From assembly GCA_018971835.1 (NCBI GenBank), contig JAGWZW010000006.1, forward strand, positions 7,749 through 71,748: DNA of 64,000 bases, read 5' to 3'. The notes below the pieces were generated by a model. It searched no databases, was not told where the DNA came from, and saw only the letters and a program-made list of their open reading frames with translations. This DNA is from Alphaproteobacteria bacterium. GTDB taxonomy: Bacteria; Pseudomonadota; Alphaproteobacteria; Micropepsales; Micropepsaceae. A program made the translations under genes and the position numbers. Shown piece by piece: positions 188-45,315 of the stretch (its first letter is position 1; each line of letters opens with the position of its first letter).

Positions 188-489
188 CGCGTCCCCGTTC
201 AAACAAATGTTAAGCGAACGTTAATCGGCCTCGCCTCGGACCGGCGCAGCATTTGTCGTTTAATGCCGGCTTCCCGCAAACCGCTCGCAAGCGGAGCTGC
301 TATGCGGCAGCAACAAATTCCTTGCGTTCCCTGCGCATTTTAACGGGATAGTGAGGGACTTCCTATAATTAACGGCCAGGACGATTGCGCCTTCACGCGG
401 CAGCTATTTCCCGCGTGGTGAGGTAACCGCCTCCGCTGTGCGTGACCGGCACCGGTACTCATAAGCGTATCAATCACGAGGGAACACAG

Positions 490-2776: not shown

Positions 2777-4903
2777 ATGGACCCGATGGAATCGATCAAA
2801 CAGACCTACTTCCAGGAATGCGAAGAGCTGCTCCTGGCGATGGAGGAAGGTCTGATCGCGATGGAGAACGGCGAGGCCGACGGCGAGATGATTAACGCCG
2901 TGTTCCGCGCCGTGCATTCGATCAAGGGCGGCGGCGGCGCTTTCGGCTTCGAGGCGCTGGTAGCCTTCGCCCATCTGTTCGAAACAGTTCTGGATCACGT
3001 GCGCAGCGGCAAGCTGGAGGCAGATGCGGGCGTGGTCAAGGCGCTGCTGCGGGCCGGCGACATCCTGGCCGACCACGTCGCCGCCGCGCGTGAGGGCCGC
3101 ACGCTCGACAAAGGCCACGACAGCGCAGTGATGGAGGAACTGGCCCAACTCGCCGGCGAAGACCTGCCGGAAGCCGGCCCGGCTCCAGCGGATTTCGACG
3201 ATCTCGACTTCGCGCCCGTGCCGGTGATGTTCGCAGACGAACCGGCCGCACCCGCCACCGGCACCGGCTGGCGTATCCGCTTTGCGCCACATACCTCACT
3301 TTACGCCCACGCCAACGAGCCGCTCCTCATCCTGCGTGAGCTGAAGACGCTGGGCGCCTTGACGGTGTCCGCCGATCTTTCGCATCTGCCCGAGTTGGCA
3401 GCAATGGATGCAGACGCGGCTTATCTCGCCTGGGATATCGAGCTCGAGGGCGACGCTCCGCGTGAAAAGGTGGAGGAAGCCTTCGAATTCGTCACCGGCG
3501 ATTGCGACCTCGAAATCACCACCCGTGGATCGGCCCCGCCGTCTCTGGATCTGCAGGACATCGAGATTACCCAGGAGCCGGCCGGACTTCAGCCGATCGC
3601 AGAACCTGCCGCTGCACTCAAGCCGGCAGAACCCACCAAACCAGCGGCTGCCGCGCCGCCGGCGAAAGCCGAGCCGGCCGTCAAACCGACCATTCGCGTC
3701 GACCTCGACAAGGTGGACCGGCTCGTCAATCTCGTGGGCGAACTTGTGATCACCCAGGCGATGCTGGCCCAGCGGGTGTTCGACGGCGACAACCACGCTG
3801 CGAATTCGGTGGACAGCAGTCTGGCCGAACTGGAGCACCTTCTGCGCGAGCTGCAGGAGGGCGTCATGGCCATCCGCACGCAGCCGGTGAAATCGGTGTT
3901 CCAGCGCATGCCGCGGCTGGTGCGCGAACTCGCGGCGCAAACCGGCAAGCAGGTTCGCCTGGTACTGGAGGGCGAGGCCACGGAAGTCGACAAGACCGTG
4001 ATCGACCGGCTGGGCGAACCGCTCACCCACATGATCCGTAACGCCATCGATCACGGGCTGGAAGGCCCCGACGGTCGCGCCGCCGCCGGAAAACCGGAGG
4101 AAGGTGTCGTGCGCCTTTCGGCCGAGCATCGCGGTGGGCGAATCGTCATCGAACTTTCCGACGACGGCCGCGGCATCAACCGCGAGAAGGTGAAGGCCAA
4201 GGCGATTGAAAAGGGCCTGATTCCCCCGAACGCCGTGCTTAACGACGACGAAATCGACAACCTAATCTTCCTGCCCGGATTCTCGACGGCTTCGGAAGTC
4301 TCGAACATCTCCGGCCGTGGCGTCGGCATGGACGTCGTCCGGCGTAACGTCGTCGAGTTGGGCGGGCGCGTGGTCATCTCCTCCACACCCGGCCGCGGCA
4401 GCCGCTTCACCATGACCCTGCCGCTGACGCTAGCCGTGCTGGACGGCATGGTGGTCGCTGTGGGCAACCAGACCTTCGTGCTGCCGCTTACCCATATCGT
4501 CGAAAGCCTGCAGCCGCGCGCCGAGGACGTGCGCGCCTTCGGCCGCGACCGCAACCTGCTGCGCATGCGCAACAGCTACGTGCCGCTGGTGCGCATCGGC
4601 GAGCTTCTGGGCGTTGCCGGCTTTGAACCAAACCCGTCCAAGGGCGTGGTGATCCTGGTCGAAAGCGGAGGCGCAGGGCGACTGGCCCTGGCGGTGGACG
4701 CCATCCTCGGCCAGCGTCAGGTCGTCATCAAGAGTTTCGAAGGCAATTACCACTGCATCGAGGGCATTGCGGCCGCCACCATACTGGGCGACGGCCGCGT
4801 GGCGCTGATCCTCGACGTCGACGGGCTGGTCGGCCGCTGCCGCTCCAACCTGCAGGACGAAATGAGCGCCACAGAACCAAAAGCAACGGGGACTGCAGGA
4901 TGA
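2777..4903 (+). CDS. cheA: Chemotaxis histidine kinase CheA
   Basis: HPt motif AVHSIKGGGGAFG, HATPase region (HMIRNAIDHG, GRGVGMDVV) and a C-terminal CheW-like domain. 708 aa. Confidence 0.95.
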   Translation: MDPMESIKQTYFQECEELLLAMEEGLIAMENGEADGEMINAVFRAVHSIKGGGGAFGFEALVAFAHLFETVLDHVRSGKLEADAGVVKALLRAGDILADHVAAAREGRTLDKGHDSAVMEELAQLAGEDLPEAGPAPADFDDLDFAPVPVMFADEPAAPATGTGWRIRFAPHTSLYAHANEPLLILRELKTLGALTVSADLSHLPELAAMDADAAYLAWDIELEGDAPREKVEEAFEFVTGDCDLEITTRGSAPPSLDLQDIEITQEPAGLQPIAEPAAALKPAEPTKPAAAAPPAKAEPAVKPTIRVDLDKVDRLVNLVGELVITQAMLAQRVFDGDNHAANSVDSSLAELEHLLRELQEGVMAIRTQPVKSVFQRMPRLVRELAAQTGKQVRLVLEGEATEVDKTVIDRLGEPLTHMIRNAIDHGLEGPDGRAAAGKPEEGVVRLSAEHRGGRIVIELSDDGRGINREKVKAKAIEKGLIPPNAVLNDDEIDNLIFLPGFSTASEVSNISGRGVGMDVVRRNVVELGGRVVISSTPGRGSRFTMTLPLTLAVLDGMVVAVGNQTFVLPLTHIVESLQPRAEDVRAFGRDRNLLRMRNSYVPLVRIGELLGVAGFEPNPSKGVVILVESGGAGRLALAVDAILGQRQVVIKSFEGNYHCIEGIAAATILGDGRVALILDVDGLVGRCRSNLQDEMSATEPKATGTAG

Positions 4904-5391: not shown

Positions 5392-6273
5392 ATGTCCGGC
5401 ACACTCCGCAAGCAAGACGCATCTCCGGTCGCGGATGGCGAGTTCGCTTTCACTTGGGCGGATTTTCACACAATCGCCCAGATCGTGCATGCGGAATCGG
5501 GTATCGTGCTGGCTGACAGCAAGGCCAATCTCGTCTATTCGCGACTAGCCAAGCGATTGAGGAAGATCGGCCTCAGGAGCTTTCGCGACTACTGCGAAAT
5601 TGTGCAGCGCGAGGACGGCGCCGACGAGCGACAGGTCATGATCGCGGCCATGACCACCAACGTCACCCGCTTTTTCCGTGAAACACACCACTTCTCCCTG
5701 CTGGAGAAGATCGTGCTGCCGCCGTTGCTCGACCGCGCCAAGAAAGGCGACCGGGTGCGGTTGTGGTCCTCGGCCTGCTCGTCGGGCGAGGAACCCTATT
5801 CGCTGGCGCTGACCATTCTCGGCCTCATGCCGGACGCGGGCAAACACGATATCCTGATCCTTGCCAGCGATCTGGATCCCAACATGCTGGCGCGCGCCGA
5901 AACCGGCATTTACAGCGCTGCGCAGGTCGAGCCCATTCCCGCGGACCTCCGGCGCAAATGGATCTCGGCGGCCAAGGCTGAAGGCGCCATGAGCTTCGAG
6001 GTAACGCCGCCTGTGCGCGAGCTGGTGCGCTTTCGCGAACTCAACCTGCTCGATCCCTGGCCGATGCGCGGACGCTTCGATGTCATCTTCTGCCGCAATG
6101 TCATGATCTATTTTGACGACGAAACCCAGAACGGTATTTGGACGCGCTTTGCCAAGGTTCTCGAGCCGGACGGAGTGCTGTGTATCGGCCATTCCGAGCG
6201 CATACCGGCGTCCATGCCGTTCGAACTGGTGGCGCAAACGAGTTATCGGCTGGCTGGCGGAGGAGCAAGATGA
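5392..6273 (+). CDS. cheR: Chemotaxis protein methyltransferase CheR
   Basis: CheR N-terminal helical domain plus SAM methyltransferase fold ([27 protein letters not shown]). Confidence 0.93.
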
Positions 6274-7328
6274 CGCCCATCCGTGTCCTCGTCGTGGACG
6301 ACTCGCCGACCATCCGGCAGTTGCTCACTATTGCGCTGGAAACCGATCCCGAGATCGAAGTGGTGGGCAGCGCACCTGAGCCAGCCGTGGCCCGGCAGAT
6401 GATCAAGGATCTCAATCCCGACGTCATTACGCTCGACATCGAGATGCCGCATATGAACGGCCTCGAGTTTCTGGAAAAGATCATGCGCCTCAGGCCGATG
6501 CCGGTGGTGATGGTTTCCACGCTCACCCAGCGCGGCGCGGACGCGACGGTGGCGGCGCTGGAACTGGGCGCCATCGATTACTTTGCCAAGCCGACGCATA
6601 ACCTGACCGAGAGCCTCAGCGCCAGCGCCGCGGAAATCGCCGAGAAGGTGAAAACCGCCGCGCGGGCACGCGTGCGCCCGCGTGAAACACCCGCCGCGGC
6701 GCGTGCCCCGGACGTCGATTACCGGCCAGCGAACAAGCTGGTGGCGATCGGCTCCTCCACCGGCGGCGTGGAAGCGCTGATCGAGGTCTTGTCGCGCTTC
6801 CCGAGGAATTGCGCGCCAACCGTTATCACCCAGCATATGCCCGAACATTTCCTGACCAGTTTTGCGCAGCGGCTGGACCGGCTCTGCGCGCCCGAAGTTC
6901 ACCAGGCCTATGAAGGTGCAGCGCTCGAGCCCGGGCATATCTATCTGGCGCCCGGCGGCGAAGCGCATCTCGAAGTCAGAAGCGGACGGCCGCTGCAATG
7001 TCACCTGCGCGTTGCCGACAAGGTGTCTGGTCATCGCCCGTCGGTCGATGTGCTGTTCGCCTCGGCCGCTGCAGCGGCAGGCAAGAGCGGGGTCGGCGTG
7101 ATCCTCACCGGCATGGGCCGCGATGGCGCCAGCGGCCTCAAAGCGATGCGTGACGCCGGCGCCATGACCGTCGGCCAGGACGAAGCCTCCTCGGTGGTCT
7201 ACGGTATGCCGCGTGTGGCATTTGAGATCGGCGCGGTAGCAGAGCAACTGCCGCTCGGCCGCATCGGAGATGAAATCGTGCGCCTGTGCAGGGCGCCCAT
7301 TCCAGTTTCTGCATCAAGGAGTGCATGA
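6270..7328 (+). CDS. cheB: Chemotaxis response regulator protein-glutamate methylesterase CheB
   Basis: REC ([14 protein letters not shown]) plus methylesterase domain (GSSTGG, GMGRDG). ATG 6270 overlaps the cheR stop (ATGA). The track ORF start at 6138 lies inside cheR and was rejected. Confidence 0.93.
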
Positions 7329-8839: not shown

Positions 8840-8853
8840 TTGATTTAGCTCAA
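8840..8853 (+). promoter_or_regulatory. FNR/FixK-type box TTGATTTAGCTCAA (TTGA-N6-TCAA)
   Basis: Matches the CRP/FNR-family core palindrome. Centred about 70 bp upstream of GTG 8916 in an AT-richer intergenic stretch, which fits a class II (-41.5) activator site with a short leader. Confidence 0.6.
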
Positions 8854-8915: not shown

Positions 8916-10091
8916 GTGACACTCGCCTTCACGCCAGACAGTTCCGACGGCATCGCCACCAAGAGCTTTCGCGGCCCCCTGGGCGGGACCGAACATTTCA
9001 TCGCGCTGACTGCCGACGGCGAGCGCGACCTGCCCGGCCAGATCGCCGAAATCGAGGAACGGTACGCAGCCGCCCTCGACGCCCTTGCCCTGCCGGAGGA
9101 GAGCGCGGTCTTCCGCCGCCTATTCATCAGCGATGCCATGAACCAGGCCGAGACGGTGCGGGCAAGCGAACTGGTGCAATCGGCGCCGGGAAACCCGGTT
9201 GCCATCTCGCTGATCCAGCAGCCGCCGCTGCCCGGCGCCAAGCTGGCGCTACTGGCCTATCACCTCTCCGGCAGCACCATCCGCAAGCGGCGCCTTTCCG
9301 AGCATGACGTGCTGGTCGAGAAGAACGGCAGCCGCCATCTGTGGACCACCGGGTTGTGCGCTGGGCAGACCATTTCGGGCGCCTCGCCCGAGGCCCAAAC
9401 CCGCAGCGTCTTTGGTGACCTGATCGGCGCACTCACCAAAGAAAGCGGCACCCTGGGCGACAATTGCGTGCGCACCTGGCTCTACCTCAAGGATGTCGAC
9501 GTCTTCTATCAGGGCATGGTCGACACTCGCGGCGCGATCTTCGCCGAAAACGGCCTCACGCCGGACACACACTACATCGCCAGTACCGGCATCGAGGGCG
9601 CCTGCGCCCACCGCTACGATCTGGTGGCGATGGACGCCTATTCCAACCTCGATCTCGATCCCCGGCAGGTTTCCTATCTCAACGATTTCTCGCGGCTGTG
9701 CGCGACGAAGGACTATAATGTCCACTTCGAGCGCGGCACCCGCATCGCCTATGCCGACCGTGCGCACCATTTCATCTCGGGCACGGCCAGTATCGACACC
9801 AGGGGCGACGTGGTCTTTCTCGGTGACGTGTTGCGCCAGACCGAATATGCGCTCGGCCATGTCGATGCGTTGCTGCGTTCCGGCGGCGCCAGGCTCGACG
9901 ACCTCGGCCACCTCATCGTCTATCTGCGCGATCCGACTGATTATGCCCGCGTCCGCGCGTTTCTGAGCGAGCGCCTGCCAGGCGTGCCGGCGGTGATTGT
10001 CCAGGGCGCGGTGTGCCGCCCGCAATGGCTGATCGAGATGGAAGGCATCGCCATCGCGCCGCACGATGCGCCGTCGTTACCGTCATTTTGA
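8916..10091 (+). CDS. Rid/YjgF-fold protein, possible FkbO/Hyg5/XanB2-type chorismatase
   Basis: 391 aa. C-terminal RidA-like block (HFISGTASIDTRGDVVFLGDVLRQTEYALGHVDALL ... WLIEMEGIAI) behind a long N-terminal extension, the layout I associate with chorismatases. GTG start. Function not verified. Confidence 0.5.
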   Translation: MTLAFTPDSSDGIATKSFRGPLGGTEHFIALTADGERDLPGQIAEIEERYAAALDALALPEESAVFRRLFISDAMNQAETVRASELVQSAPGNPVAISLIQQPPLPGAKLALLAYHLSGSTIRKRRLSEHDVLVEKNGSRHLWTTGLCAGQTISGASPEAQTRSVFGDLIGALTKESGTLGDNCVRTWLYLKDVDVFYQGMVDTRGAIFAENGLTPDTHYIASTGIEGACAHRYDLVAMDAYSNLDLDPRQVSYLNDFSRLCATKDYNVHFERGTRIAYADRAHHFISGTASIDTRGDVVFLGDVLRQTEYALGHVDALLRSGGARLDDLGHLIVYLRDPTDYARVRAFLSERLPGVPAVIVQGAVCRPQWLIEMEGIAIAPHDAPSLPSF

Positions 10092-10119
10092 GTAACTTGG
10101 CTTCGGGGAGGAGATCATC

Positions 10120-10791
10120 ATGACTGCCGAAGAGCCGGATTTCGCCATGCTCAACGAGGCGGAGATTTCCGTCGCCAAGCTGCATACCGACCCTTACGAC
10201 TATGCCTATGTCGAGCAGGCGATCCGGCCGGAATTCCGCGAGGCGGTTCTGGCAGATGCGCCGGTGATCCCCGATCGCGGCAGTTATGGCCTGCCCAGCC
10301 TCAATTATGGCCCAGCCTTCGGAACCGTCATCAAGGATCTCACCAGCCAGCGCTTCAAGCGCCTGATCGAAGAGAAATTCGACATGGACCTCAGCAAGAA
10401 CCCCACGGTTCTGCTGATGATGGGCAACACCACCGGCCATTACAACGAAGGCTTCGCCCATCCCGATTCCCGGCACAAGATCGTCACTGTGATCGTGGGC
10501 TTCAGCCGCGAATGGCCTTATGAGAAGGGCCGCCTGCGCGTTCTGAGAAGTTCGGACCGCGAAGACTACGCCTTCGAATTTACGCCCGAATACGGCCACA
10601 TGCTGATGTTCCGCGTGAGCGAAAAGTCCTGGCACGGCTTCCTGCCGCAGAAGGGTCCGCGCATGAGCCTGCAACTCTGCTATGTGGATTCGGAGGCCTA
10701 TGTGCGCAGCGAATATGCGCGCCACGGTCTCAGCGCTTTCGCCAAATCGGTGCCGATGCTGCGCAAGATCATCGAATGGGCGCCGCGCTGA
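10120..10791 (+). CDS. 2OG-Fe(II) oxygenase family protein (prolyl-4-hydroxylase-like)
   Basis: HxD...H...R facial-triad pattern (FAHPDSRHK ... GHMLMFRVSEKSWHGFLPQKGPRMSLQL). GGAGGAG Shine-Dalgarno. Confidence 0.7.
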   Translation: MTAEEPDFAMLNEAEISVAKLHTDPYDYAYVEQAIRPEFREAVLADAPVIPDRGSYGLPSLNYGPAFGTVIKDLTSQRFKRLIEEKFDMDLSKNPTVLLMMGNTTGHYNEGFAHPDSRHKIVTVIVGFSREWPYEKGRLRVLRSSDREDYAFEFTPEYGHMLMFRVSEKSWHGFLPQKGPRMSLQLCYVDSEAYVRSEYARHGLSAFAKSVPMLRKIIEWAPR

Positions 10792-10815
10792 ACGGGCGCC
10801 AGGGAACCTGACCGC

Positions 10816-11496
10816 ATGAGCTTTCCGCCCCTGCCGAGCGTCGAGGAAATGGCCGGCCACTTCGAGCGCGCGCTGCGTGCCGCGCGCATCGCCGAAACAC
10901 CCTATCGCCGCTGGAACATGACGAACGTCTTTCCGGAGAGCATGTGCACGGGCATCCTTACCCTGCCCATCGCCCCGCCGCTGATCGACGATTGCCATGG
11001 CGTGCGCGACCGCCACAATGACAAGCGCAGCTTCTTCACGCCGGAGCTGCAGAAGGATTTCCCCACTTGTGCGGTGTTCGCCGAGGCCATGCAGCGGCCG
11101 GCAGTGGCGCGTGCCTTCAAGGAGGTTTGCAACGTTCCGGCCGAAGGCTCCTATCTGCGCATCGAATATATCCAGGATACTGACGGCGCCTGGCTCGAGC
11201 CCCATCGCGACATCAAGGAGAAGCTGTTCTCGATGGTGGTCTATCTGTGCACCGGCCCGCATGCCAAGGAATGGGGCACCGATATCTACGACGATGACAA
11301 GAAATGGGTCGGCCGTTCCTCCGCGGAGTTCAACTCGGCCGTGATCTTCATCGCCGGGCCCAACACCTGGCACGGTTTCGACAAGCGCCCGATCGTCGGG
11401 GTGCGCCGGCTAATGGAAATCAATTACGTTCATCCGAGCTGGCGCGACCGCAGCCAGCTCTCCTTCCCCGATCGTCCGATTACGGTCGCGCCGTGA
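10816..11496 (+). CDS. 2OG-Fe(II) oxygenase family protein, divergent paralogue of the preceding gene
   Basis: Same pattern (LEPHRDIKEK ... SAVIFIAGPNTWHGFDKRPIVGVRRLMEINY). Confidence 0.7.
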   Translation: MSFPPLPSVEEMAGHFERALRAARIAETPYRRWNMTNVFPESMCTGILTLPIAPPLIDDCHGVRDRHNDKRSFFTPELQKDFPTCAVFAEAMQRPAVARAFKEVCNVPAEGSYLRIEYIQDTDGAWLEPHRDIKEKLFSMVVYLCTGPHAKEWGTDIYDDDKKWVGRSSAEFNSAVIFIAGPNTWHGFDKRPIVGVRRLMEINYVHPSWRDRSQLSFPDRPITVAP

Positions 11497-11519
11497 GGGC
11501 CGACCCGCATCGTCGGAGC

Positions 11520-12179
11520 ATGGATGCGCCGCTCTCGCCGGTTCTGCTGCTGGGGCTCGCGTTGGAAAAGCTGCCGGTGCGGCTGATGCAGCCGGTGCTG
11601 GATGGGCTGCTGCGCATCGTCGTCCGCCGCCATCCCGATTGCCTGGAGCGCATGGCTGAGTGGGGCCAGGCGCGCGTACTCGTCGATCCGATCGACCTGC
11701 CCTTCGTCATCCTGCTGCATCCCGATCCCGCGCGGCCCAGCCTTACCGCATTGCGCCGCAGCCAATCCATCGAGGCGGATGCGGTGATCCGCGGCCCGCT
11801 CGAAATGCTGATCGAGCTGGCCGAGGGCCGAGTGGACGGCGATACCTTATTCTTCTCGCGCGAGCTGATCGTGGAAGGCGATACCGAGGTGGTGGTCGCA
11901 CTGCGCAACGCGGTGGACGGCGCCGGGATCGACATGATAGGCGACATCGCCGCCGCGCTCGGTCCCTTCGGCCGGCCCTTCCGCCGCGTCGCCGGAACCG
12001 GCACCCGGCTGCTTTCGCGCGTGCATGCCGACATGTCCAGGCTCGCTGCCGCGGTGATCGCGCCCGCGCTGCGCACCAGCGACGCGCAGGCCTTCCGCAT
12101 CGCCGAACTCGAAGAAGAAATCAAGGCGCTGCGCAAAGAACGCCCGCGCGCGCGCAGAAACGCCAGAGGCGCGTCATGA
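11520..12179 (+). CDS. ubiT: SCP2 sterol-binding domain protein, ubiquinone anaerobic biosynthesis accessory factor UbiT
   Basis: SCP2-like core (IRGPLEMLIELAEGRVDGDTLFFSRELIVEGDTEVVVALRNAVD). ATGA-coupled to the ubiU-ubiV pair. ATG 11520 with GGAG upstream; the track start at 11304 overlaps the previous gene. Confidence 0.8.
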   Translation: MDAPLSPVLLLGLALEKLPVRLMQPVLDGLLRIVVRRHPDCLERMAEWGQARVLVDPIDLPFVILLHPDPARPSLTALRRSQSIEADAVIRGPLEMLIELAEGRVDGDTLFFSRELIVEGDTEVVVALRNAVDGAGIDMIGDIAAALGPFGRPFRRVAGTGTRLLSRVHADMSRLAAAVIAPALRTSDAQAFRIAELEEEIKALRKERPRARRNARGAS

Positions 12180-13165
12180 TCCGGCCCGAACTCATCTGCC
12201 CAGCCGGCACGCCGGCCGCACTCAGAAGTGCCGTGGAAGCGGGCGCCGACGCGGTCTATCTCGGCTTCCGCGACGAAACCAACGCGCGCAATTTTCCCGG
12301 CCTCAATTTCAGCCGCAAGGAACTGGAAGAGGGTATCGGCTTCGCCCATGACAAGGGCGCCAAGATCCTGGTGGCCATCAACACCTTTCCCAAATCCGGC
12401 GAACCGGAGATCTGGCACAGCGCGGTGGACGACGCCGCCAGGCTCGGCGCCGACGCGGTGATCCTGGCCGATATCGGCCTGCTCGATTACGCGAAGCGCA
12501 GCCATCCCGGGTTGCGGCTTCATCTTTCGGTGCAGGCTGCGGCGCCCAATCCCATTGCCATAGGCTATTACGCCGAACGTTTCGGCATCCGGCGCGTGGT
12601 GTTGCCGCGCGTGCTGACTGTTCCTGAGATCGCCGATCTCAACGAAGCCATCGCCCCGATCGAGACGGAGGTCTTCGTCTTCGGCGGGCTCTGCGTGATG
12701 ACGGAGGGGCGCTGCGCGCTCTCCTCCTACGCCACTGGCCGTTCGCCCAACATGAACGGCGTCTGCTCACCGGCCTCGCATGTGCGCTATATCGAGAGCG
12801 CGCGCGGCGTCTCCAGTAAACTGGGGGATTTCACCATCAACGAATTCGGCCGTAACGAACCGGCTGGCTATCCCACACTATGCAAGGGCCGCTTCGTCGC
12901 CAAAGGCAAGGCGAGCTACCTGTTCGAGGAGCCGACTTCGCTCAACACCCTTTCCATCCTGCCCGAATTGATGAAGGCCGGCGTTACCGCCTTCAAGATC
13001 GAGGGCCGCCAGCGCGGCCGCGCCTACGTTGCCGCCGTGGTGCAGGCGTTTCGCGAAGGCGTCGATGCGGTCATGGCCGGCAAGCCCCTGCCCGACATCG
13101 ACCTGGCGCATATCACCGAAGGCGGGCGGCAGACCACCGGCGCCTATGAAAAGAGCTGGCGATGA
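12176..13165 (+). CDS. ubiU: Peptidase U32-family ubiquinone hydroxylase subunit UbiU
   Basis: U32 N-terminal block (ELICPAGTPAALRSAVEAGADAVYLG). Four Cys spaced 7/17/39 residues apart (GGLCVMTEGRC...GVC...TLCKG), as I recall for E. coli UbiU C169/C176/C193/C232. Confidence 0.85.
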   Translation: MIRPELICPAGTPAALRSAVEAGADAVYLGFRDETNARNFPGLNFSRKELEEGIGFAHDKGAKILVAINTFPKSGEPEIWHSAVDDAARLGADAVILADIGLLDYAKRSHPGLRLHLSVQAAAPNPIAIGYYAERFGIRRVVLPRVLTVPEIADLNEAIAPIETEVFVFGGLCVMTEGRCALSSYATGRSPNMNGVCSPASHVRYIESARGVSSKLGDFTINEFGRNEPAGYPTLCKGRFVAKGKASYLFEEPTSLNTLSILPELMKAGVTAFKIEGRQRGRAYVAAVVQAFREGVDAVMAGKPLPDIDLAHITEGGRQTTGAYEKSWR

Positions 13166-14067
13166 GCGGAGCGAGCGCAAAACTCACCCTCGGCCCCGTG
13201 CTGTTCCACTGGCAGCCGGAGGACTGGCGCGACTTCTACTTCCGCATCGCCGACGAAGCGGATGTCGATACCGTGCATGTCGGCGAGGTGGTGTGCTCCA
13301 AACGCACGCCGTTCTACGACAAGCTGATCCCCGAGGTGATGGAGCGGCTGGCAGCGGGCGGCAAGGAAGTCGTGCTGTCGTCGCTTGCGCTCATCATGAG
13401 CGAGCGCGAACAGGAGATGGCGCGCGGGCTTGCGGTCGCCGAGCGCGCGCTGATCGAGGCCAACGACATGACGCTGGCGGCGCTGCTGGCCGGGCGGAAC
13501 TTCGTCGTCGGGCCGTTCGTCAATATCTACAACGAGGGCACGCTCGGCGTGCTGGAAGGCATGGGCGCGGTGCGCCTCTGCCTGCCGCCGGAACTTCCCG
13601 CAGAAAGGCTGACTGCGCTGGCGGCGTGCGCCAAGTCGGAGCTGGAAGTTCTGGCCTTCGGGCGGCTGCCGCTGGCCATTTCCGCGCGCTGTTATGCGGC
13701 ACGCGCGCACAACCTTTCCAAGGACGGCTGCCTCTATGTTTGCGGCGAGCACCCTGACGGCATGGCGGTGGACACACTGGACGATGTGCCTTTTCTCGCC
13801 GTCAACGGCACGCAGACGCTGTCCTATCGGATGATCGATCTTTCGGCCGAGTTGCTACAGCTGCGCCAGATCGGCATTCGGCGGTTCCGTCTTTCGCCGC
13901 AGAAGGTTGACATGGTCGCGGTGGCGGAGACGTTTCGGGCGACGCTGAACGGGGCGATCGACGCCGAAGAAGCCTGCAGCCGGCTGGAAAACATCTGCCC
14001 CGATGCGGAGTTCGCCAACGGCTATTTTCACGGTCAGCCTGGTCACGCCTTGGTCGAAGCCGATTGA
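13162..14067 (+). CDS. ubiV: Peptidase U32-family ubiquinone hydroxylase subunit UbiV
   Basis: U32 family. One N-terminal Cys plus a C-x13-C-x4-C cluster (ARCYAARAHNLSKDGCLYVCG), matching my memory of UbiV C39/C180/C193/C197. ATGA overlap with ubiU. Confidence 0.85.
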   Translation: MSGASAKLTLGPVLFHWQPEDWRDFYFRIADEADVDTVHVGEVVCSKRTPFYDKLIPEVMERLAAGGKEVVLSSLALIMSEREQEMARGLAVAERALIEANDMTLAALLAGRNFVVGPFVNIYNEGTLGVLEGMGAVRLCLPPELPAERLTALAACAKSELEVLAFGRLPLAISARCYAARAHNLSKDGCLYVCGEHPDGMAVDTLDDVPFLAVNGTQTLSYRMIDLSAELLQLRQIGIRRFRLSPQKVDMVAVAETFRATLNGAIDAEEACSRLENICPDAEFANGYFHGQPGHALVEAD

Positions 14068-14074
14068 GAGAACG

Positions 14075-15355
14075 TCAACGCGGCAGTGCCAGCGGAAAGT
14101 TCGGTATCTTTTCCAGCCCGGTGAACCGCACCGTCGACAGATAGGTGCCGGTGCCCAGGCGGACATTGCAGCGGCGCGCGATCTGAACGGCCTCGGCGCT
14201 GTCGAGGTGGCTCAAATGCAGCAGCAGCTTCTGCCTGGCGCACAAGGCAACCGTGTCCTTTATGAATTTCACGGCCGTCTCCCGGTCTTCACTGTTGGGA
14301 TAGGGGCTGCCAAGTGCCATTGCGCTCAGACGGAATTCGAATTTCGGAATGGCGCGGAGAGATTGAAATTCCAGTGCGACGTGGATGTTGGGCAGCTTGA
14401 GCATTGCCGCCAATTCACCCAAGCGCGCCGCCGGCGTTCCCGGCGGTATCTTTTCGATTTTCAGGATCAACGGTGTTGAAGGCTGCAGACGCAACTTCTG
14501 CAAGGCGGTGATATACCGGATCCGCGATTGGAAGACTGTCAGCGTTTCATAGCTGACGCCAACGCCGAGAGCGCAAACCTGTTCGACAGCGGAAATGCGC
14601 CCCGCGTAGGCTGATACGGCATCCAATAGCGCAAATTCGATACTTGCGGCTATTTTCGGGTCCGCTTCGTCGAACATGAGCCCGCCGAGCGACGCCAGCT
14701 TGTCCGGCCCGCTGCGCACCGCCGAAAGAAACAGCGAACTGGACAAGCCGCGCTGCAGGCTCCAGACCGGAAAAAACGATGCTTTCAGGCTGAAGTCCGA
14801 AAGCATGGTGTGAATATCGGCGAGCCGGTCGAGTTCCGGCGCCGGCGGCTTCAGCACCGTTTCGGAAATCGCCGCCACGGGCATGGGTGGCGTGCATTGC
14901 GTACTTTGCGCGAAGACAATTTCCGTACCCTCGCGCTCCAGCATGGCTTCGATCAGTTTACTGATGCGCGGCAGGTCGCTGCCAGACGGAACCACGACGG
15001 TGGACACCACGTTACGGACAGAGACTTCCTCGACCTGATCACCAAACAGCGCCTGGCAGACCTCTCGCGCAATGGCCGCGCAAACCTGGGTGGCCTCGGC
15101 CACAGTCAGGCTGCGAAAGATCGCGATATAGGACAGCTCGTCAAGTTTCGCGAAGTAGTCGCCCGGCCCCTGTGCGCGCGCGATAGCGGTTTCGAACAGC
15201 TTGTGAACCAGTTCAGAAAGCCGTGGCCATTTGGTGTCGAGCCGGGTCTTGAGCGGTGCCAGCGCCAGCACATGCAGCTTTGCCGCGGGAACCTTGGCCT
15301 GCGTGCTATTGGCGGCCCCTGCGGCCGACCGCGCAATATCTGCAACGTCTGTCAC
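14075..15355 (-). CDS. Hypothetical protein with degenerate GGDEF-like and EAL-like halves
   Basis: By-eye alignment. N-terminal half follows the GGDEF-domain topology, but the GG[DE]EF site reads KLDELSY. C-terminal half follows the EAL-domain topology (FFPVWSLQRG ... LILKIEKIP ... HVALEFQSL ... LLHLSHLD) with catalytic residues replaced. GTG start. Confidence 0.45.
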   Translation of the reverse strand: MTDVADIARSAAGAANSTQAKVPAAKLHVLALAPLKTRLDTKWPRLSELVHKLFETAIARAQGPGDYFAKLDELSYIAIFRSLTVAEATQVCAAIAREVCQALFGDQVEEVSVRNVVSTVVVPSGSDLPRISKLIEAMLEREGTEIVFAQSTQCTPPMPVAAISETVLKPPAPELDRLADIHTMLSDFSLKASFFPVWSLQRGLSSSLFLSAVRSGPDKLASLGGLMFDEADPKIAASIEFALLDAVSAYAGRISAVEQVCALGVGVSYETLTVFQSRIRYITALQKLRLQPSTPLILKIEKIPPGTPAARLGELAAMLKLPNIHVALEFQSLRAIPKFEFRLSAMALGSPYPNSEDRETAVKFIKDTVALCARQKLLLHLSHLDSAEAVQIARRCNVRLGTGTYLSTVRFTGLEKIPNFPLALPR

Positions 15356-15545: not shown

Positions 15546-16007
15546 TCAATGTTTGTCGCAGTGATCCTTCCAGACCGAAACCCGGTAGATACAATCGTGC
15601 CTCGGGGTGATGAAGCTGTAAATTGCCAAGCCACGAATGACGATACCGGCGTCGCCCTGGAGCCCCGAAAGATTGGGATCGGAGACACTGAGCTGCCCCT
15701 TGTCGGGCGTCGCGCCGGCGGGCCCCGTAACATCGAACCAGACGCGCTTGCCCAGATCCTGCAGCACGCTCCTGGCTTCGCCGCGGTCGGAGCAGCCGAT
15801 GTCTATCCAGCCCATGACCGGATCGTTCGGCAACGACTGGCCCTTGAATTCCCAGAGTTCCTGCTGCACGAGCCCATCGCCGGCATTGCTGATCCTGGCT
15901 TCGGTGACCTTGCAGATTCCGCCCGTCACTTCGCCGGCGTTCGCAAGGCTTGCTGTACCGATCAGCGCTACAGCGCCGATCACGGCGGTGAGAAGAGTTT
16001 TCTTCAT
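15546..16007 (-). CDS. Small secreted hypothetical protein
   Basis: Signal peptide MKKTLLTAVIGAVALIGTASLANA. Four Cys. Good Shine-Dalgarno (AGGAGAA). No family recognised. Confidence 0.6.
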   Translation of the reverse strand: MKKTLLTAVIGAVALIGTASLANAGEVTGGICKVTEARISNAGDGLVQQELWEFKGQSLPNDPVMGWIDIGCSDRGEARSVLQDLGKRVWFDVTGPAGATPDKGQLSVSDPNLSGLQGDAGIVIRGLAIYSFITPRHDCIYRVSVWKDHCDKH

Positions 16008-16178: not shown

Positions 16179-16205
16179 GCGCGGCCGGAGATGATCCGGC
16201 CGCGC
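16179..16205 (-). terminator. Perfect 11-bp GC hairpin downstream of the c4 cytochrome gene
   Basis: GCGCGGCCGGA-GATGA-TCCGGCCGCGC, 8 nt after the stop at 16213. No strong U-tract on the minus strand, so terminator function is tentative. Confidence 0.45.
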
Positions 16206-16212
16206 CGCGCGA

Positions 16213-16866
16213 TTATTTGCTGGCCGGTTTTGTCGCCTCCTCAGCGGAGCTGGGCGAAGCCAGCGACGCCAGATAGCTCGACACGTCACGAATCTGCTCG
16301 TCCGTCATCTGGGCAACGTTGGCAGACATGATCTCGTTGTAGCGCTGCTTGGTGCGGAAGGCCAAAAGCTGCGCCGCCAGATATTCGCGATGCTGGCCCG
16401 CCAGACGCGGGATCGTCGCGCTGCCGGCTGCCGTATCGCCGTGGCAGGCGTTGCAGGCCGGCACGTTGTCGGCAGCCACGCCATTCTCGAAGATGGCCTT
16501 GCCGGCAGCCACTTCCTCCGGGCTCAGCCCGGAGGTGCGCGGTGGCGGCGGCAAAGCCGCGAAGTAGGTGGCGATTGCATCGATCGTATCGTCGGTCAGG
16601 TCGCCCGCCATGCCCCACATATAGGCCTGAGCATGGGCATCGCTGCGTTTGTGGTCCCGGAATGCCTTGAGCTGCGTAACAAGGTAGTCCTTGTTCTGGG
16701 CTGCCAGATCCGGGAAGAGCGGCGCGATGGAAAGGCCGCGGTCGCCGTGGCATTGGCTGCACGTGCTGGCGACAAGTGCGGGCTCCATCGGCACGGACGG
16801 TTGGGCTGACGCGCTCACAGCGAACAGGACTGCGCCCGCGGCAGCAAGGATTGCTATGGATTTCAT
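16213..16866 (-). CDS. Periplasmic dihaem cytochrome c, c4 family (Cyc1-like)
   Basis: Signal peptide plus two CxxCH motifs (CSQCHG, CNACHG) in two repeated cytochrome c domains. Starts 18 nt after the upstream cytochrome-porin gene, with a GAGGGGAAAG Shine-Dalgarno. Confidence 0.85.
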   Translation of the reverse strand: MKSIAILAAAGAVLFAVSASAQPSVPMEPALVASTCSQCHGDRGLSIAPLFPDLAAQNKDYLVTQLKAFRDHKRSDAHAQAYMWGMAGDLTDDTIDAIATYFAALPPPPRTSGLSPEEVAAGKAIFENGVAADNVPACNACHGDTAAGSATIPRLAGQHREYLAAQLLAFRTKQRYNEIMSANVAQMTDEQIRDVSSYLASLASPSSAEEATKPASK

Positions 16867-16884
16867 TTTCTTTCCCCTCGCTCT

Positions 16885-18324
16885 TTAGAACGCGATCCAA
16901 AGATAGCCGTAGAATGTATTGTTGTCCGTTGCCCCGGTGCTGGCGCCGGCGAACTTGCCATAGGCGGTGTAGGCGAGCGCCAGCTTGGTGTTCAGGAACG
17001 GCAGATAATCGACCTCAAAAGTCACGCCGCTGGTATCGGGCTTGGCCATCAGATCGGTGGAAGACCCGAACGTATCGAATGGCTGGATGCTGCCGCCGAT
17101 CATCCGGTGATAGTAGTAGGAAAGGCTGCCGCGCACCGTATCCATATGCGTATTGGCGGCGGTCAGGCTGGTGCCGTTGGCCAGATTGTAGGCGCTTGCG
17201 GTGCTGTTGAGGGTAGAGTCCTCGTGGATCCACGTTGCGGCAAGGGTGAAGATGTCGCGCGTACCGATGTACTGGTACTGGGTATCAAAGGCGTAATCGA
17301 GGTAGTTGTCGGTCGGACCGGAGCCAACGCCCTGGCACTTGCCGCTCGTATCAAAGATCGGATTACCCGAACTGTCGACAAAGCTGGTCTGCGTGAGGCA
17401 GCCGTCGCCGGCCAGGTCGTTGGCGACGCGGGTATGTGCCGACATGCCGTAGGTGCCGACCTCGAAGGAGTTGTTGTCCCAGTCCCATTCGCCGGCAAAG
17501 CGCCAATAGGGCGCGCCGCCGTCGATCACCATGCCGGCTGCCGAGTCATACGGTCCGTTGACGCCTTGCGGAGCCGACGTATAGACGCCGGCTTCGGCGT
17601 ACCAGGTGTTGTTGAGCATGCCATAGACCGTCAGGCCTGCAGAGTTGCCCGCGACTGTGCCGTCAATGAATGTCGCCCCGCCCGCGCCCTGGCCGGGCAC
17701 GGTATTCGGCGCCATATAGGGGTTATACCAGGCCGGCACCGTGTCCCAGAGATCCTGCACTGTCGGGTTGTTGTTCAGGCTGAGGCCCCAGTCCAGCTTG
17801 GCGCCGGAGGCGAGCATCTCGGTATCGGCAAAACGAATGTCGGTGTTGTCCATGCCGATGGAACCGGCCGTCGGATCGTAGGTGATCTGGATGAAGGTTC
17901 CCAGATGCGGCGCGACCTGGCCCGCATAGAACAGGCTCAACTGGCTTGGGAACTCGGTCGTGTTGTTCTGCGCATTGCCGAGGCCGTTCGAATCCGGCGC
18001 GGTTGCGCTGGTGTGGGTGTAGCCCGCGACCACCATGGCCGAGATCGGCGAGAAGAAGCTGAGATCCAGATTGCGCCGGTCGTTCTGGCCGACATCGCTG
18101 ATGCGCTGGCGGTTGTTGATCAGATAACCGTCGAGCTTGAAGCGCCGGCCGAACGGCGTCAGCTCCGGGAACACGGTATGGCAGGCTTCGCACGCCAGGC
18201 CGGTCTGTCGCGCATAACTGGGAACGGCCGCCGCCGGCGCCGCGCTCAGCGCCAGAAGACCAATAGCTCCCGCGCTTGCCAGCAGCGTGGCGCGGGCGCC
18301 GACCGGAAATGAGACTATCGACAT
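16885..18324 (-). CDS. Outer-membrane fused monoheme cytochrome c-porin, Cyc2-like
   Basis: 479 aa from ATG 18324. Signal peptide (...LALSAAPAAA), then a single CEACH haem motif (18178-18192) within PSYARQTGLACEACH. The remainder is Gly/Tyr/Asn/Thr-rich with alternating beta-strand character and ends in ...YGYLWIAF (OMP C-terminal Phe). Confidence 0.6.
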   Translation of the reverse strand: MSIVSFPVGARATLLASAGAIGLLALSAAPAAAVPSYARQTGLACEACHTVFPELTPFGRRFKLDGYLINNRQRISDVGQNDRRNLDLSFFSPISAMVVAGYTHTSATAPDSNGLGNAQNNTTEFPSQLSLFYAGQVAPHLGTFIQITYDPTAGSIGMDNTDIRFADTEMLASGAKLDWGLSLNNNPTVQDLWDTVPAWYNPYMAPNTVPGQGAGGATFIDGTVAGNSAGLTVYGMLNNTWYAEAGVYTSAPQGVNGPYDSAAGMVIDGGAPYWRFAGEWDWDNNSFEVGTYGMSAHTRVANDLAGDGCLTQTSFVDSSGNPIFDTSGKCQGVGSGPTDNYLDYAFDTQYQYIGTRDIFTLAATWIHEDSTLNSTASAYNLANGTSLTAANTHMDTVRGSLSYYYHRMIGGSIQPFDTFGSSTDLMAKPDTSGVTFEVDYLPFLNTKLALAYTAYGKFAGASTGATDNNTFYGYLWIAF

Positions 18325-18618
18325 TGTTCTTATCCCCTGCAGGTGGTTGGACGCCTTGAACGCGCGATCGCGTCTGGACAGTCCTGTTGTGTCGCTCGGA
18401 GATATCGCGCGCACCCTAACCCTTTGTTGCGTCATATCAATTATTGCATGATTGTAATCTTAATAAGATAACTTCTAGAAAACAAAGACTTAGTAGACTT
18501 AGGAGCAGTCGCAAAAGCGCACGCGTGGCCGCCTGTCGCGGCAACGCGTCAATTTGGCAACGGCCGGATTTGCTGCGCTGCAGCGCGACCGCGCAGCCCA
18601 ATCCAGCCTCTTAGTTCG

Positions 18619-19026
18619 CTATTCGACAGCCTTCAGCATCACCGCAACCTTGGCGGCGGCCGACTGGGCGGATTTCAGATCGTCGTCCTTGAGCCCCTTC
18701 GCGGCCTCGGCGGCGGCGGCTTCGAGCGCCGCCCTGGTTTTCGCGTCTGCGGCATCTGGGATGGCGCCATTGCCGGAGTGGGAACAGGGATTCATCTCTG
18801 TCGCGTCGAAATCCTTGCCCTTCGGCCCGGACAGGCAATTGAGCGTGTGATGAAGATGGGTATGCACCATCTTCACGGTGTCGGACTTGGAAGCCAGTCC
18901 GGCGTGAGTGGCAGCGGTGACAATTTCGGAATGCGCGTCCGCCAGGGCGGCCGCCGGCAGCAGCACCAACGCCGCCACCGCCAGAAGCGGCATCGTCCAT
19001 TTTGCATGTGTCGGTTTGCCGGTCAT
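18619..19026 (-). CDS. Small periplasmic His/Cys-rich protein (possible metal or redox protein)
   Basis: Signal peptide (MPLLAVAALVLLPAAALADA). Motifs VHTHLHHTLNC and NPCSHSGNG. Ala/Lys-rich helical C-terminus. Strong Shine-Dalgarno (GGAGAGAGGGA). Confidence 0.6.
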   Translation of the reverse strand: MTGKPTHAKWTMPLLAVAALVLLPAAALADAHSEIVTAATHAGLASKSDTVKMVHTHLHHTLNCLSGPKGKDFDATEMNPCSHSGNGAIPDAADAKTRAALEAAAAEAAKGLKDDDLKSAQSAAAKVAVMLKAVE

Positions 19027-29143: not shown

Positions 29144-30568
29144 TTATTCTACCGCGGCGAACCGACGGCACAGCGGCGCGGGATCGACGATGGCCCGGCC
29201 GAGCTGGGCACTGCGGGCGTCTTCGCCGAAGGCCAGCAGCATGAGTTGCGTGGCGTGAACGATTGGTGTGGGCGTTTCGAAGTCCAGCCGCCGCTGCCGC
29301 GCATCAAGGTTGATGTGGCACATCGGGCACATGGTGGCGACGATATCCGCGCCGCAGGCACGCGCGTTCGTCAGCACCTTCTTCGTCATCTTCAGCGACA
29401 CCTCGGTCTTAGAGATACCGAGCGAGCCGCCGCAGCAATCGGTCTTGCCGGACCATGCGACCGGCTCCGCGCCCAGTGCCCGCACCAGATAATCCATCTT
29501 CATCGGATATTCGGGATGTTCGGCGCCGGTAATGCGGCTTGGGCGCGTAATCAGGCAGCCATAATAGCAGGCGACCTTCAGCCCGGCGAGCGGCCGCCTG
29601 ACGCGCGCGGCGACCTTGTCCGGGCCGGCCTGTTCCATCAGCGTGTCGAGCAGGTGCTGCACGCGCACCGTGCCGCCATAGCTATGGCCGATCTTTCCAG
29701 CGATCCTCGCCGCCTTGGCCGCATCCTCGCGGACAGCATGCTCGACCGTCTTGAGCCGGCCGAAGCAAGCGCTGCACGGCGTGGTCAGCGTACCGATCTG
29801 CATGCGCTCGACGGCGGCGATGCTGCGCATCGGCATCAGTGTGGCCTGTTCCGCGTCGGTCGCGTGCGCCGGGCTGGAGCCGCAGCAGGTCCAGCCTTCC
29901 GGCTCGACCAGATCGAGATCGAGCGCGCGGGCCACCATGCGAGCGGTGCGGTCATAATCCGAAGCGCTGCCCTCCGAAGCGCAGCCTGGAAAATAGCCGA
30001 TCTTTTTGCCGGCATCGGCCACCGCGACCACGGCTGTGGGCATGCGAACAAATTTCGGCAACAGCTTGAGCCGGCCGCGGCGAAACAATTGCCACCCCAA
30101 CCCGGCATCATGGACCGGCTTGCCGCGCACGAGGTTGAAGGCCAGCATCAGCAGCGCCTCGGGCAGCCGCCCGAAGATGGCGACCAGCCGCATGAACAGC
30201 GCGTTGAAGGCAGGGATCTCGGGAACCGCCGGCGCGATGCCGCGCTTCTTCGCCTCGATGCGCAGCATATCCATCACACCGGTCACGTCGATGCCGCGCG
30301 GGCAGCGCGTGGCGCAGGTGTAGCAGGAGGAACAGAGCCAGATCGTCTTGCTCGCCAGCACGTTTTCGTCGTTCAACTGCAAAGCGCGCATCACCTGGTT
30401 CGGCGTCAGGTCGAACTGGTCGGCGAGCGGGCAGCCCGCGGTGCACTTCACGCACTGCCAGCAGCGGTTGATATTCTCGCCTATCCGTGCCCTGACCGTA
30501 TCGGCGAACGTCGCCGCACCCGATTGCGCACCGCGCGCGAAGGCCGCCGTCTGTTCCATCGCGTTCAT
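29144..30568 (-). CDS. hdrCB: Heterodisulfide reductase HdrC-HdrB fusion-like protein (2x[4Fe-4S] + two CCG domains)
   Basis: HdrC-like ferredoxin motifs (CWQCVKCTAGCP, CSSCYTCATRCP), followed by two CCG-type Cys-rich domains (YFPGCASEG...WTCCGSS; ACYYGCLITRP...KTDCCGGS). ATG 30568 lies 5 nt after the metF stop; the track start at 30808 is inside metF. Confidence 0.8.
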   Translation of the reverse strand: MNAMEQTAAFARGAQSGAATFADTVRARIGENINRCWQCVKCTAGCPLADQFDLTPNQVMRALQLNDENVLASKTIWLCSSCYTCATRCPRGIDVTGVMDMLRIEAKKRGIAPAVPEIPAFNALFMRLVAIFGRLPEALLMLAFNLVRGKPVHDAGLGWQLFRRGRLKLLPKFVRMPTAVVAVADAGKKIGYFPGCASEGSASDYDRTARMVARALDLDLVEPEGWTCCGSSPAHATDAEQATLMPMRSIAAVERMQIGTLTTPCSACFGRLKTVEHAVREDAAKAARIAGKIGHSYGGTVRVQHLLDTLMEQAGPDKVAARVRRPLAGLKVACYYGCLITRPSRITGAEHPEYPMKMDYLVRALGAEPVAWSGKTDCCGGSLGISKTEVSLKMTKKVLTNARACGADIVATMCPMCHINLDARQRRLDFETPTPIVHATQLMLLAFGEDARSAQLGRAIVDPAPLCRRFAAVE

Positions 30569-30572
30569 CGGC

Positions 30573-31568
30573 TCACCCTCGCGGCTGCTGGCGCAATCCG
30601 GCTGCCTTGACGATATCGGGCACCGCCTCTTCCCATTCGATCGCCATGACATGCACGCCGGCCACGCCCTCGATCTCACGGATCTGCTGGATGGTTTCCA
30701 CGCAGATGCGTTTGCCCTCATTGCGCCAGGCCTGGGCGCGGGCCTGCTTGTCGTCGATGCCCTTGACTGCATCCTCGAGGCGCACGTCGATGGTTTCGGG
30801 CACGGCAAGGCCCGGCACGTTCTGGCGCAGGTGGCGCACCATGCCCGGGCTCTTTACCGGGCCGACACCGGCCAGGATCGCGGTCTTCTCGTGGACACCG
30901 AGATCGACGACTTTCTTCATAAACGCGCGGAAGCGCGGCACGTCGTAGATCAACTGCGTCTGGATGAAATCGGCGCCGGCCACGACCTTTTTGCGCAGGC
31001 GATAGGGGCGGATGGCGGCCGGGTCGGCAAACGGATTCTCGGCCGCGCCGATGAAAAGCCGCGGCCCGCCGCCGGGAATATCCTTGCCGTTCTGGTAGTG
31101 GCCTTCGTCGCGCATGCCGCGCACCATCGCCACGAGCTGGATCGAATCGACGTCGTGCACGTTCTTGGCGCCGGGGTGATCGCCCTTGGACTGGTGATCG
31201 CCAGAAAGACACAGCAGATTATGCACGCCAAGCGCGGCGGCGCCCAAAAGGTCGCTCTGCATTGCCAGCCGGTTGCGGTCGCGGCAGGTCATCTGCACGA
31301 TCGGCTCCAGCCCCTCGGCGATCATCAGCAGGCCGGTGGCGATGCTGCTCATGCGCACCACGGCGGCCTGGTTGTCGGTGACGTTCGCGGCATCGACCCA
31401 GCCCTTGAGCAGCTGCGCCTTCCGGCGCACGGCGTCGGCATCGCAGCCGCGCGGCGGGCCCAGCTCGGCGGTGACGGCGAACTGCCCCGCGGACAGCACG
31501 CGCTCCAGATTGCCGCCGGATTTAGGCGTAGTTTCGGGTGGAATGGCGGCTGCGTTTGCCAAGCTCAT
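30573..31568 (-). CDS. metF: Methylenetetrahydrofolate reductase MetF (small, acetogen/Hdr-associated type)
   Basis: MTHFR fold motifs (FAVTAELGPPRG, NVTDNQAAVVRMSS, QMTCRDRNR, LCLSGDH). Confidence 0.85.
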   Translation of the reverse strand: MSLANAAAIPPETTPKSGGNLERVLSAGQFAVTAELGPPRGCDADAVRRKAQLLKGWVDAANVTDNQAAVVRMSSIATGLLMIAEGLEPIVQMTCRDRNRLAMQSDLLGAAALGVHNLLCLSGDHQSKGDHPGAKNVHDVDSIQLVAMVRGMRDEGHYQNGKDIPGGGPRLFIGAAENPFADPAAIRPYRLRKKVVAGADFIQTQLIYDVPRFRAFMKKVVDLGVHEKTAILAGVGPVKSPGMVRHLRQNVPGLAVPETIDVRLEDAVKGIDDKQARAQAWRNEGKRICVETIQQIREIEGVAGVHVMAIEWEEAVPDIVKAAGLRQQPRG

Positions 31569-45304: not shown

Positions 45305-45315
45305 GGTGACGAAGC

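Follow-up and report, generated by a model that had tools for sequence, protein, structure and literature searches.

Cyc2 proteins combine an N-terminal monohaem cytochrome c and an outer-membrane porin in one polypeptide, and biochemical work has demonstrated Fe(II) oxidation by one Cyc2 in every one of the three clusters. The iron-oxidase function is held with most confidence for Cluster 1, which includes Cyc2 PV-1 and the Cyc2 proteins of neutrophiles among the Zetaproteobacteria, Gallionellaceae and Chlorobium, and with less elsewhere. In the rus operon of Acidithiobacillus, cyc2 is directly followed by cyc1, which encodes a dihaem cytochrome c4, and further downstream by cup, coxBACD and rus. 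Here, we describe a locus resembling the head of this operon in a 64,000-nucleotide stretch of DNA from an alphaproteobacterium (contig JAGWZW010000006.1; the whole stretch is referred to as the window), in which a cyc2-like gene (16885..18324, minus strand) is followed by a cyc1-like gene (16213..16866, minus strand). We are highly confident that these two genes form a Cyc2-family and Cyc1-like module. To the complete statement that they would constitute a two-gene electron conduit for Fe(II) oxidation at low oxygen, which is made by homology with the described systems, we assign a probability of roughly 0.55.

Outer-membrane electron transfer through a cytochrome-holding barrel is also known from MtoAB, PioAB and MtrCAB. 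In contrast to Cyc2, these systems keep cytochrome and barrel on separate polypeptides, the former being decahaem and the latter having ~26 strands, and they have no sequence relationship to it; solid substrates are taken to be their targets, whereas for monohaem Cyc2 dissolved Fe2+ has been proposed. Homologues of Cyc2 and Cyc1 in Alphaproteobacteria are already known from published work. The Acidithiobacillus proteins have been linked to dense homologue clusters in Hyphomicrobiales, Rhodospirillales, Burkholderiales and other orders, and stand-alone cyc2 and cyc1 genes have been reported as well (PMC10654088). In addition, the 1,593 sequences in the published Cyc2 tree come in many cases from organisms for which iron oxidation is not known.

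The cyc2-like gene and its dihaem neighbour

According to the published criteria (Keffer et al. 2021, PMC8406198), a Cyc2 protein possesses a signal peptide and one CXXCH near the N-terminus and is no shorter than 365 aa. The consensus AXPXFAR[Q/K][T/Y] upstream of the CXXCH has been called unique to Cyc2, a PXL motif is situated 4 residues downstream, and the porin domain of ~16 strands has the phosphate porins OprO (4RJW) and OprP (2O4V) as structural homologues (PMC8406198). In the window, the signature block (18160..18228, minus strand) reads AVPSYARQT-GLA-CEACH-TVF-PEL, with AVPSYARQT at 18202-18228, CEACH at 18178-18192 and PEL at 18160-18168. Six of the seven specified consensus positions agree, and the sole deviation is a tyrosine in place of phenylalanine, whereby the aromatic character is kept. 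The haem-block motif given in the earlier note on this DNA was confirmed against the published one. The PxL element is formed by P53-E-L55, directly after H49-TVF, and is present in 118 of the top 120 homologues.

The tyrosine is shared by other members of the family, as Y takes the aromatic position of the signature in 27 of these 120 homologues, against F in the other 93. The strict pattern is matched by 92 of them, and a literal regular-expression filter on the published consensus would pass over the window protein because of its Y. The haem motif, the loss of which among close homologues had been named beforehand as fatal to the Cyc2 claim, is kept throughout, with exactly one CxxCH in 120 of 120 sequences. 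In an alignment of 54 homologues with a mean column identity of 51%, the invariant columns comprise A33, P35, A38, R39, Q40, T41, G42, C45, C48, H49 and T50.

The cyc2-like gene encodes 479 aa, starting with the ATG at 18324 and ending with the stop codon at 16885-16887. Its N-terminus (MSIVSFPVGARATLLASAGAIGLLALSAAPAAA|VPSY) appears on inspection as a typical Sec signal, with positive charge, a hydrophobic stretch and an AxA site. Residues 1-33 (18226..18324, minus strand) were thus read from the sequence as the signal peptide, with predicted cleavage after AAA, and the AlphaFold2 model contains a helix at residues 8-26. The sole CxxCH of the protein, CEACH (residues 45-49), lies 12 residues past the predicted cleavage site, and the C-terminus ...YGYLWIAF has the aromatic-x-Phe end. 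The signal peptide, the CEACH with its coordinates and its distance from the cleavage site, and the C-terminus had been listed in the earlier note and are present as stated there. The same 479-aa and 217-aa products are found in public gene calls on identical contigs. A 516-aa reading from the in-frame upstream ATG at 18435 was rejected, since both the public calls and the homologues, which carry 36-50 residues before the haem motif, favour the 479-aa start. The composition of both open reading frames (ORFs) is of the coding type, with a GC content at third codon positions of 0.77-0.79 vs 0.51 at second positions, and because the homologues of each number in the thousands, neither is a chance ORF.

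Searches of Pfam, NCBIfam and PDB sequences with the 479-aa protein gave no match. These empty results are explained by the lack of a curated Cyc2 model, as relatives are abundant. More than 4,000 of them, all labelled hypothetical, occur in a large protein collection. At 50% identity, an exhaustive HMMER search retrieved 2,737 clusters (E up to 1e-3), 301 of them even at E up to 1e-30, and 586 of the first 600 matches from a pattern search were confirmed as relatives.

For comparison with an authentic Acidithiobacillus rus operon, the sequence of 1H1O was recovered from the PDB search alignment and then used to fetch genomic loci, which led to NZ_CP130948.1 (locus L008). The window protein shares 33% identity with Cyc2 of this operon end to end (BLASTP, E 3e-64), and 13 representatives from other clades of the family show 32-34%. 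Published identities amount to 17-23% between Cyc2 clusters and to 26-35% among relatives of A. ferrooxidans Cyc2. Since 33% exceeds the former and fits the latter, the window protein appears to belong to the A. ferrooxidans-type branch (published Cluster 2), an assignment made from identity to the Cluster 2 reference alone. Together, the signature and the full-length alignment bear out the Cyc2-like identity that had been proposed.

The porin domain (approximately residues 75-479; 16888..18102, minus strand), which ends in ...LWIAF, was delineated with AlphaFold2 and Foldseek. The AlphaFold2 model, built on 54 sequences, has a mean predicted local distance difference test score (pLDDT) of 73.7, a predicted template-modelling score of 0.75 and 16-17 long strands. 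A Foldseek search against the PDB returned the 16-stranded porins OmpC, OmpF and PhoE as best matches, with OprP (2O4V) also listed, at a probability of 1.00; there is no solved Cyc2 structure. The protein therefore models as a porin-like β-barrel of ~16 strands, in line with the barrel suspected in the earlier note.

The cyc1-like gene follows after a spacer of 18 nt (16867..16884, minus strand) with the Shine-Dalgarno-like GAGGGGA, as read from the sequence. This implies co-transcription of both genes, and equally short spacers occur at related loci. The encoded 217-aa protein, a predicted periplasmic dihaem cytochrome c4, has its own signal peptide, two Pfam Cytochrom_C domains and the haem motifs CSQCH (16747-16761) and CNACH (16441-16455), so that the gap and the dihaem ORF described previously both stand. 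Its best PDB match is 1H1O, Cyc1 of A. ferrooxidans (E 1.7e-40, 142 bits, aligned end to end), whereas other c4 structures score 98, 87 and 76 bits, with E from 1e-27 to 1e-20 for the Pseudomonas-type c4. The identity to Cyc1 of the reference rus operon is 43%. Furthermore, the methionines in the YMW and N-x-x-M segments, which we take to be haem ligands of 1H1O, align between the two proteins. Given these matches, the pair is specifically cyc2-cyc1-like and more than a porin beside any cytochrome, which agrees with the Cyc1-like nature suggested before. Like Cyc1 (CYC41) of A. ferrooxidans, the window protein contains two c-type haem domains and is encoded directly after cyc2, but it carries a C-terminal extension of ~15 residues (SPSSAEEATKPASK), and no aa3 oxidase operon follows it.

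A perfect 11-bp GC-rich hairpin (16179..16205, minus strand) starts 8 nt past the cyc1-like stop codon, with a fold energy of -35.2 kcal/mol and a z-score of -3.0 vs shuffles. It has no U-tract and was left uncalled by the consensus terminator scan; the consensus promoter and terminator scan around both genes gave nothing useful. The hairpin is a possible end of the transcription unit.

With respect to the host, exact copies of the 479-aa protein are present on contigs from four metagenome-assembled genome (MAG) assemblies, namely GCA_028865405.1, GCA_028869875.1, GCA_021824885.1 and GCA_021824985.1. Members of the 90% cluster are labelled 'Alphaproteobacteria bacterium' by NCBI and the 62-66% identical relatives 'Rhizomicrobium sp.', a genus of the order Micropepsales. 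The genome had been called rhizobia-like; its nearest named relatives are instead Rhizomicrobium and thus Micropepsales. Assembly GCA_021824885.1 holds the exact protein (JAKAJQ010000744.1, L022) as well as an 89%-identical copy (JAKAJQ010000593.1, L001) in a partly different context, so that either the bin mixes two strains or the two loci are paralogous. MAGs with an Acidithiobacillus-like cyc1 carry accessions from the same JAKA* series, a faint hint of a mine-water habitat.

Pairing across loci and the upstream FNR-type box

The association of the two genes was counted in a wider set of loci, 80 metagenomic ones included; 67 loci of this set had enough downstream sequence. In 64 of these 67, the next gene after the cyc2-like one is a dihaem ORF, the start of which is a few tens of bases at most from the cyc2-like stop codon. 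The same succession was found in five independent contexts with differing flanks, and no recurrent third gene was found beside the pair across the loci. Occasional neighbours are a histidine kinase (8 loci), a HemN-like radical-SAM protein (7), Usp (5), a monohaem cytochrome c (3) and HiPIP (high-potential iron-sulfur protein; 3), the carrier class of Iro and PioC. Examples are the HiPIP gene at 6031-6408 of L069, the gene for an oxygen-independent HemN-like enzyme at 3030-4406 of L058, the tandem Usp genes at 6027-6989 of L096 and the divergent monohaem cytochrome c gene at 7371-7760 of L004.

When all ORFs of the reference rus operon were compared with the window by tblastn, only cyc2 and cyc1 were matched, and cup, coxBACD and rus were found nowhere in the 64 kb. 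The locus is therefore a two-gene module corresponding to the rus-operon head and not a rus operon. Of the rus-operon likeness noted earlier, the cyc2-cyc1 head thus holds, while the oxidase and rusticyanin genes are absent from the window. Complete or partial rus operons are located on plasmids in Acidithiobacillus ferruginosus CF3 (L008, NZ_CP130948.1, pCF3-2, 51 kb) and A. ferrianus MG (L011, NZ_CP127524.1, p1MG, 62 kb). This agrees with the mobile elements noted in the literature as flanking rus operons.

Upstream of the pair, an FNR/FixK-type box (18427..18440, minus strand) reads TTGATATGACGCAA on the coding strand (TTGCGTCATATCAA as read at the site) and matches the consensus at 8 of 10 positions, with its start 116 nt away from the ATG of the cyc2-like gene. 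Boxes of the form TTGAT-N4-nnCAA are placed 91-116 nt before the start codon in the window and at four related loci: L001 (98 nt; TTGATCTCCATCAA, a perfect palindrome), L002 (111 nt; TTGATCTTCCGCAA), L004 (102 nt; TTGATCTCGCGCAA) and L007 (91 nt; TTGATGTTCGTCAA). L025 and L026 carry a box of this form as well, at the corresponding distance from their haem motif. For an enrichment test, the stretch from 120 to 300 nt ahead of the haem motif was compared with five equal-sized control regions in 72 loci. Perfect FNR palindromes, including some from distant members, were present in this region in 5 of the 72 loci and in none of the five control regions, and sites with up to 2 mismatches in 16 of the 72 loci vs 1-6 in the controls.

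The positional conservation of the box, combined with a neighbouring ubiTUV operon that is itself preceded by an FNR box, suggests that the pair is probably expressed at low oxygen. The HemN-like and Usp genes that occasionally adjoin the pair at other loci were counted in favour of the same expression. No report linking cyc2 to FNR, to Rhizomicrobium or to heterotroph deletion mutants was found in the literature.

In comparison with Cyc2 of the Acidithiobacillus rus operon, the window protein shows the same signal peptide, single N-terminal CXXCH within A-x-P-x-aromatic-A-R-Q-T, PxL element and ~16-strand porin, a similar length (479 aa vs ~485-516 aa) and a cyc1-type gene directly after it. 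The differences are the Y in place of F, the alphaproteobacterial MAG host, the absence of cup, coxBACD and rus downstream, and the FNR-type box, which is lacking at the Acidithiobacillus locus. The Cluster 1 proteins share the fused cytochrome-porin architecture and the family-defining motif but belong to another cluster than the window protein, and were likened to it by published architecture and motif.

Proposed electron flow and its alternatives

In the mechanism that we favour, dissolved Fe(II) would reach a haem held in or at the outer-membrane barrel and lose one electron there. The electron would then pass to the soluble dihaem c4 in the periplasm, which would hand it on to a terminal reductase that depends on cytochrome c and has its gene in another part of the genome. 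The most plausible terminal acceptors would be a cbb3-type oxidase of high affinity or an enzyme of denitrification. The unit would be expressed when oxygen is scarce, the same condition under which Fe(II) persists. Cytochromes c4 are established donors to cbb3 oxidases, and the pathway model for neutrophiles runs from Cyc2 through Cyc1 to a cbb3 oxidase. The Fe(II)-oxidation mechanism is proposed because of this published model, the c4-to-cbb3 role and the homology to proven Fe(II) oxidases. We infer each of its elements, namely haem attachment, outer-membrane location, the Fe(II) substrate, inward flow, the identity of the acceptor and FNR control.

Several observations weigh against this proposal. 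The role of the window's Cyc2 branch is predicted from homology, and Keffer et al. (2021, PMC8406198) have described the function of Cyc2 outside the well-supported iron-oxidiser clades as uncertain and the protein as possibly having other functions. The host genome is a MAG from an uncultured organism for which no iron physiology is known. Within the 64-kb window, tblastn and the Pfam survey detected no terminal oxidase, cupredoxin or HiPIP, and no CRP/FNR-family regulator was present among the window ORFs scanned in that survey. In the structural model, the pLDDT falls below 50 for residues 27-55, the haem region. The low confidence of the model is confined to loops and the surroundings of the haem site, and around the latter it is attributed to building the model without the cofactor.

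As for regulation, the earlier note had spoken of a weak FNR-like half-match. The box is present there and its position is kept across the clade, but its statistics within the window are no better than chance, with 19 sites of up to 2 mismatches vs 13.3 expected. Most of the more distant soil-clade loci are without the box. Low-oxygen control is therefore not family-wide, and by its sequence distribution the box belongs to certain branches, among them the window's. Finally, one species of Rhizomicrobium, R. electricum, is a facultative anaerobe whose source was a microbial fuel cell, according to a title cited in PMC3408238, and such a fuel-cell species would fit electron flow in the opposite direction.

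Among the alternatives, the pair could serve a purpose other than energy conservation, oxidising Fe(II) or a small reductant at the surface and thereby shielding the periplasm against Fe(II) and the Fenton reaction or conditioning iron for uptake. This explanation differs from the favoured one in the physiological pay-off, the mechanism being alike. It would suit a family that occurs extremely widely, both in metagenomes of soil and peat and among heterotrophs with no record of iron oxidation, as the literature also has it, and a locus with no autotrophy or dedicated oxidase genes alongside in the window survey and with varied neighbours in place of a fixed respiratory operon. However, the dedicated c4 partner, found in 64 of the 67 loci, suggests a passage of the electrons into the respiratory chain, for which the established function of c4 proteins as cbb3 donors also speaks. 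We consider such a protective or iron-conditioning role rather unlikely.

The same proteins could also work in the opposite direction. Under anoxia, electrons from the quinol pool would be exported through an inner-membrane quinol oxidase or bc1 to the c4 and on to the Cyc2-like haem, with Fe(III) in soluble or chelated form, humics or an electrode as final acceptors. Anoxic expression is indicated by the FNR-type box together with the neighbouring operon for anaerobic ubiquinone synthesis, a single haem in a pore is reversible in principle, and the homologues with 62-66% identity carry the genus name of the fuel-cell isolate R. electricum (title in PMC3408238), a link that holds at the genus level only. 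The electrode-oxidising Tenderia electrophaga lies within the published Cyc2 tree, suggesting that the range of the family extends beyond Fe(II). Against export, all Cyc2 proteins tested so far oxidise Fe(II), and their potentials are high, with +208 mV for Cyc2 PV-1 (PMC8406198). Such potentials favour accepting electrons over donating them to Fe(III) minerals, and the known outward conduits are multihaem chains of the MtrCAB type. The acidophile Cyc2 proteins have even higher potentials than Cyc2 PV-1. We judge outward flow improbable.

That an ordinary substrate porin with an incidental CxxCH merely neighbours an unrelated c4 by chance is extremely improbable and effectively refuted by the conservation data: although the barrel resembles general and phosphate porins and no Pfam or NCBIfam model covers the protein, the haem motif and ~10 surrounding residues are invariant across homologues only 45% identical, a dihaem neighbour occurs in 64 of 67 loci despite unrelated flanks, and both proteins are closest specifically to the rus-operon pair.

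Genomic surroundings and meaning for the Cyc2 family

The ubiTUV genes terminate a same-strand run (8952-14067, plus strand) that is convergent with the cyc2-cyc1 pair. UbiT, UbiU and UbiV, the oxygen-independent ubiquinone hydroxylation system, each score above the NCBI curated cut-offs, and an intergenic FNR/FixK box with 1 mismatch (TTGATTTAGCTCAA; 8840-8853, plus strand) lies ahead of the run. The run starts with an FkbO/Hyg5 chorismatase-like plus RidA protein (weak matches), a 2-oxoglutarate-Fe(II) oxygenase-like protein and a 226-aa uncharacterised protein. The run seems to be an operon for making ubiquinone without oxygen and may provide its own 4-hydroxybenzoate. In addition, a chemotaxis cluster (CheA at 2777-4903, CheB at 6138-7328) is opened by a fusion of protoglobin with a methyl-accepting chemotaxis protein (442-2049, plus strand), a haem-based sensor of the HemAT type, which suggests aerotaxis and fits a micro-oxic lifestyle. 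The FNR boxes, ubiTUV and this sensor together point to host life at low or changing oxygen.

Closer to the pair, a 135-aa secreted His-rich protein (MVHTHLHHTLNC...; 18619-19026, minus strand) is encoded just upstream of the FNR box and a 153-aa secreted Cys-containing protein (15546-16007, minus strand) downstream of the pair; neither has a family match, and the gene of the latter is absent from L001. A 426-aa protein (14075-15355, minus strand), also downstream of the pair, has a marginal EAL-domain match only and is retained in L001, where it is called at 419 aa. Farther away and unrelated to the pair, a CCG-domain/4Fe-4S protein (29144-30808, minus strand) is encoded near an unusually large redox protein of 1,525 aa (32736-37313, minus strand), in which a GltD-like pyridine-nucleotide oxidoreductase is fused to FAD-binding and ferredoxin domains. 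An archease-RtcB RNA-ligase pair is located beside a LysR-type regulator (44777-46746, plus strand).

The cyc2 gene is the main candidate marker for microbial iron oxidation, and most of its homologues occur in organisms never shown to oxidise iron (Keffer 2021). The present locus is a clean example from an uncultured alphaproteobacterium, reduced to the two-gene core. On its own it leaves the knowledge of the Cyc2 family unchanged, and the result is solid and will not surprise a specialist. What may be new are the quantified, near-obligatory cyc2-cyc1 pairing in the window's branch and the conserved FNR-type box, for neither of which an earlier report was found in the literature. If the link to low oxygen is true, surveys using cyc2 as a marker would need to consider the oxygen regime and heterotrophic carriers for iron cycling.

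More tentatively, and with distinctly less than even odds, the Cyc2-c4 pair could represent a self-contained, horizontally mobile plug-in under FNR/FixK control that is carried by many non-lithotrophic bacteria of soil, peat and mine water and exchanges electrons with extracellular iron, humics or electrodes at the oxic-anoxic boundary. If this were so, low-oxygen electron exchange through monohaem cytochrome-porins would be far commoner in ordinary heterotrophs than the view centred on iron oxidisers holds, and it would possibly run outward in Rhizomicrobium-like bacteria.

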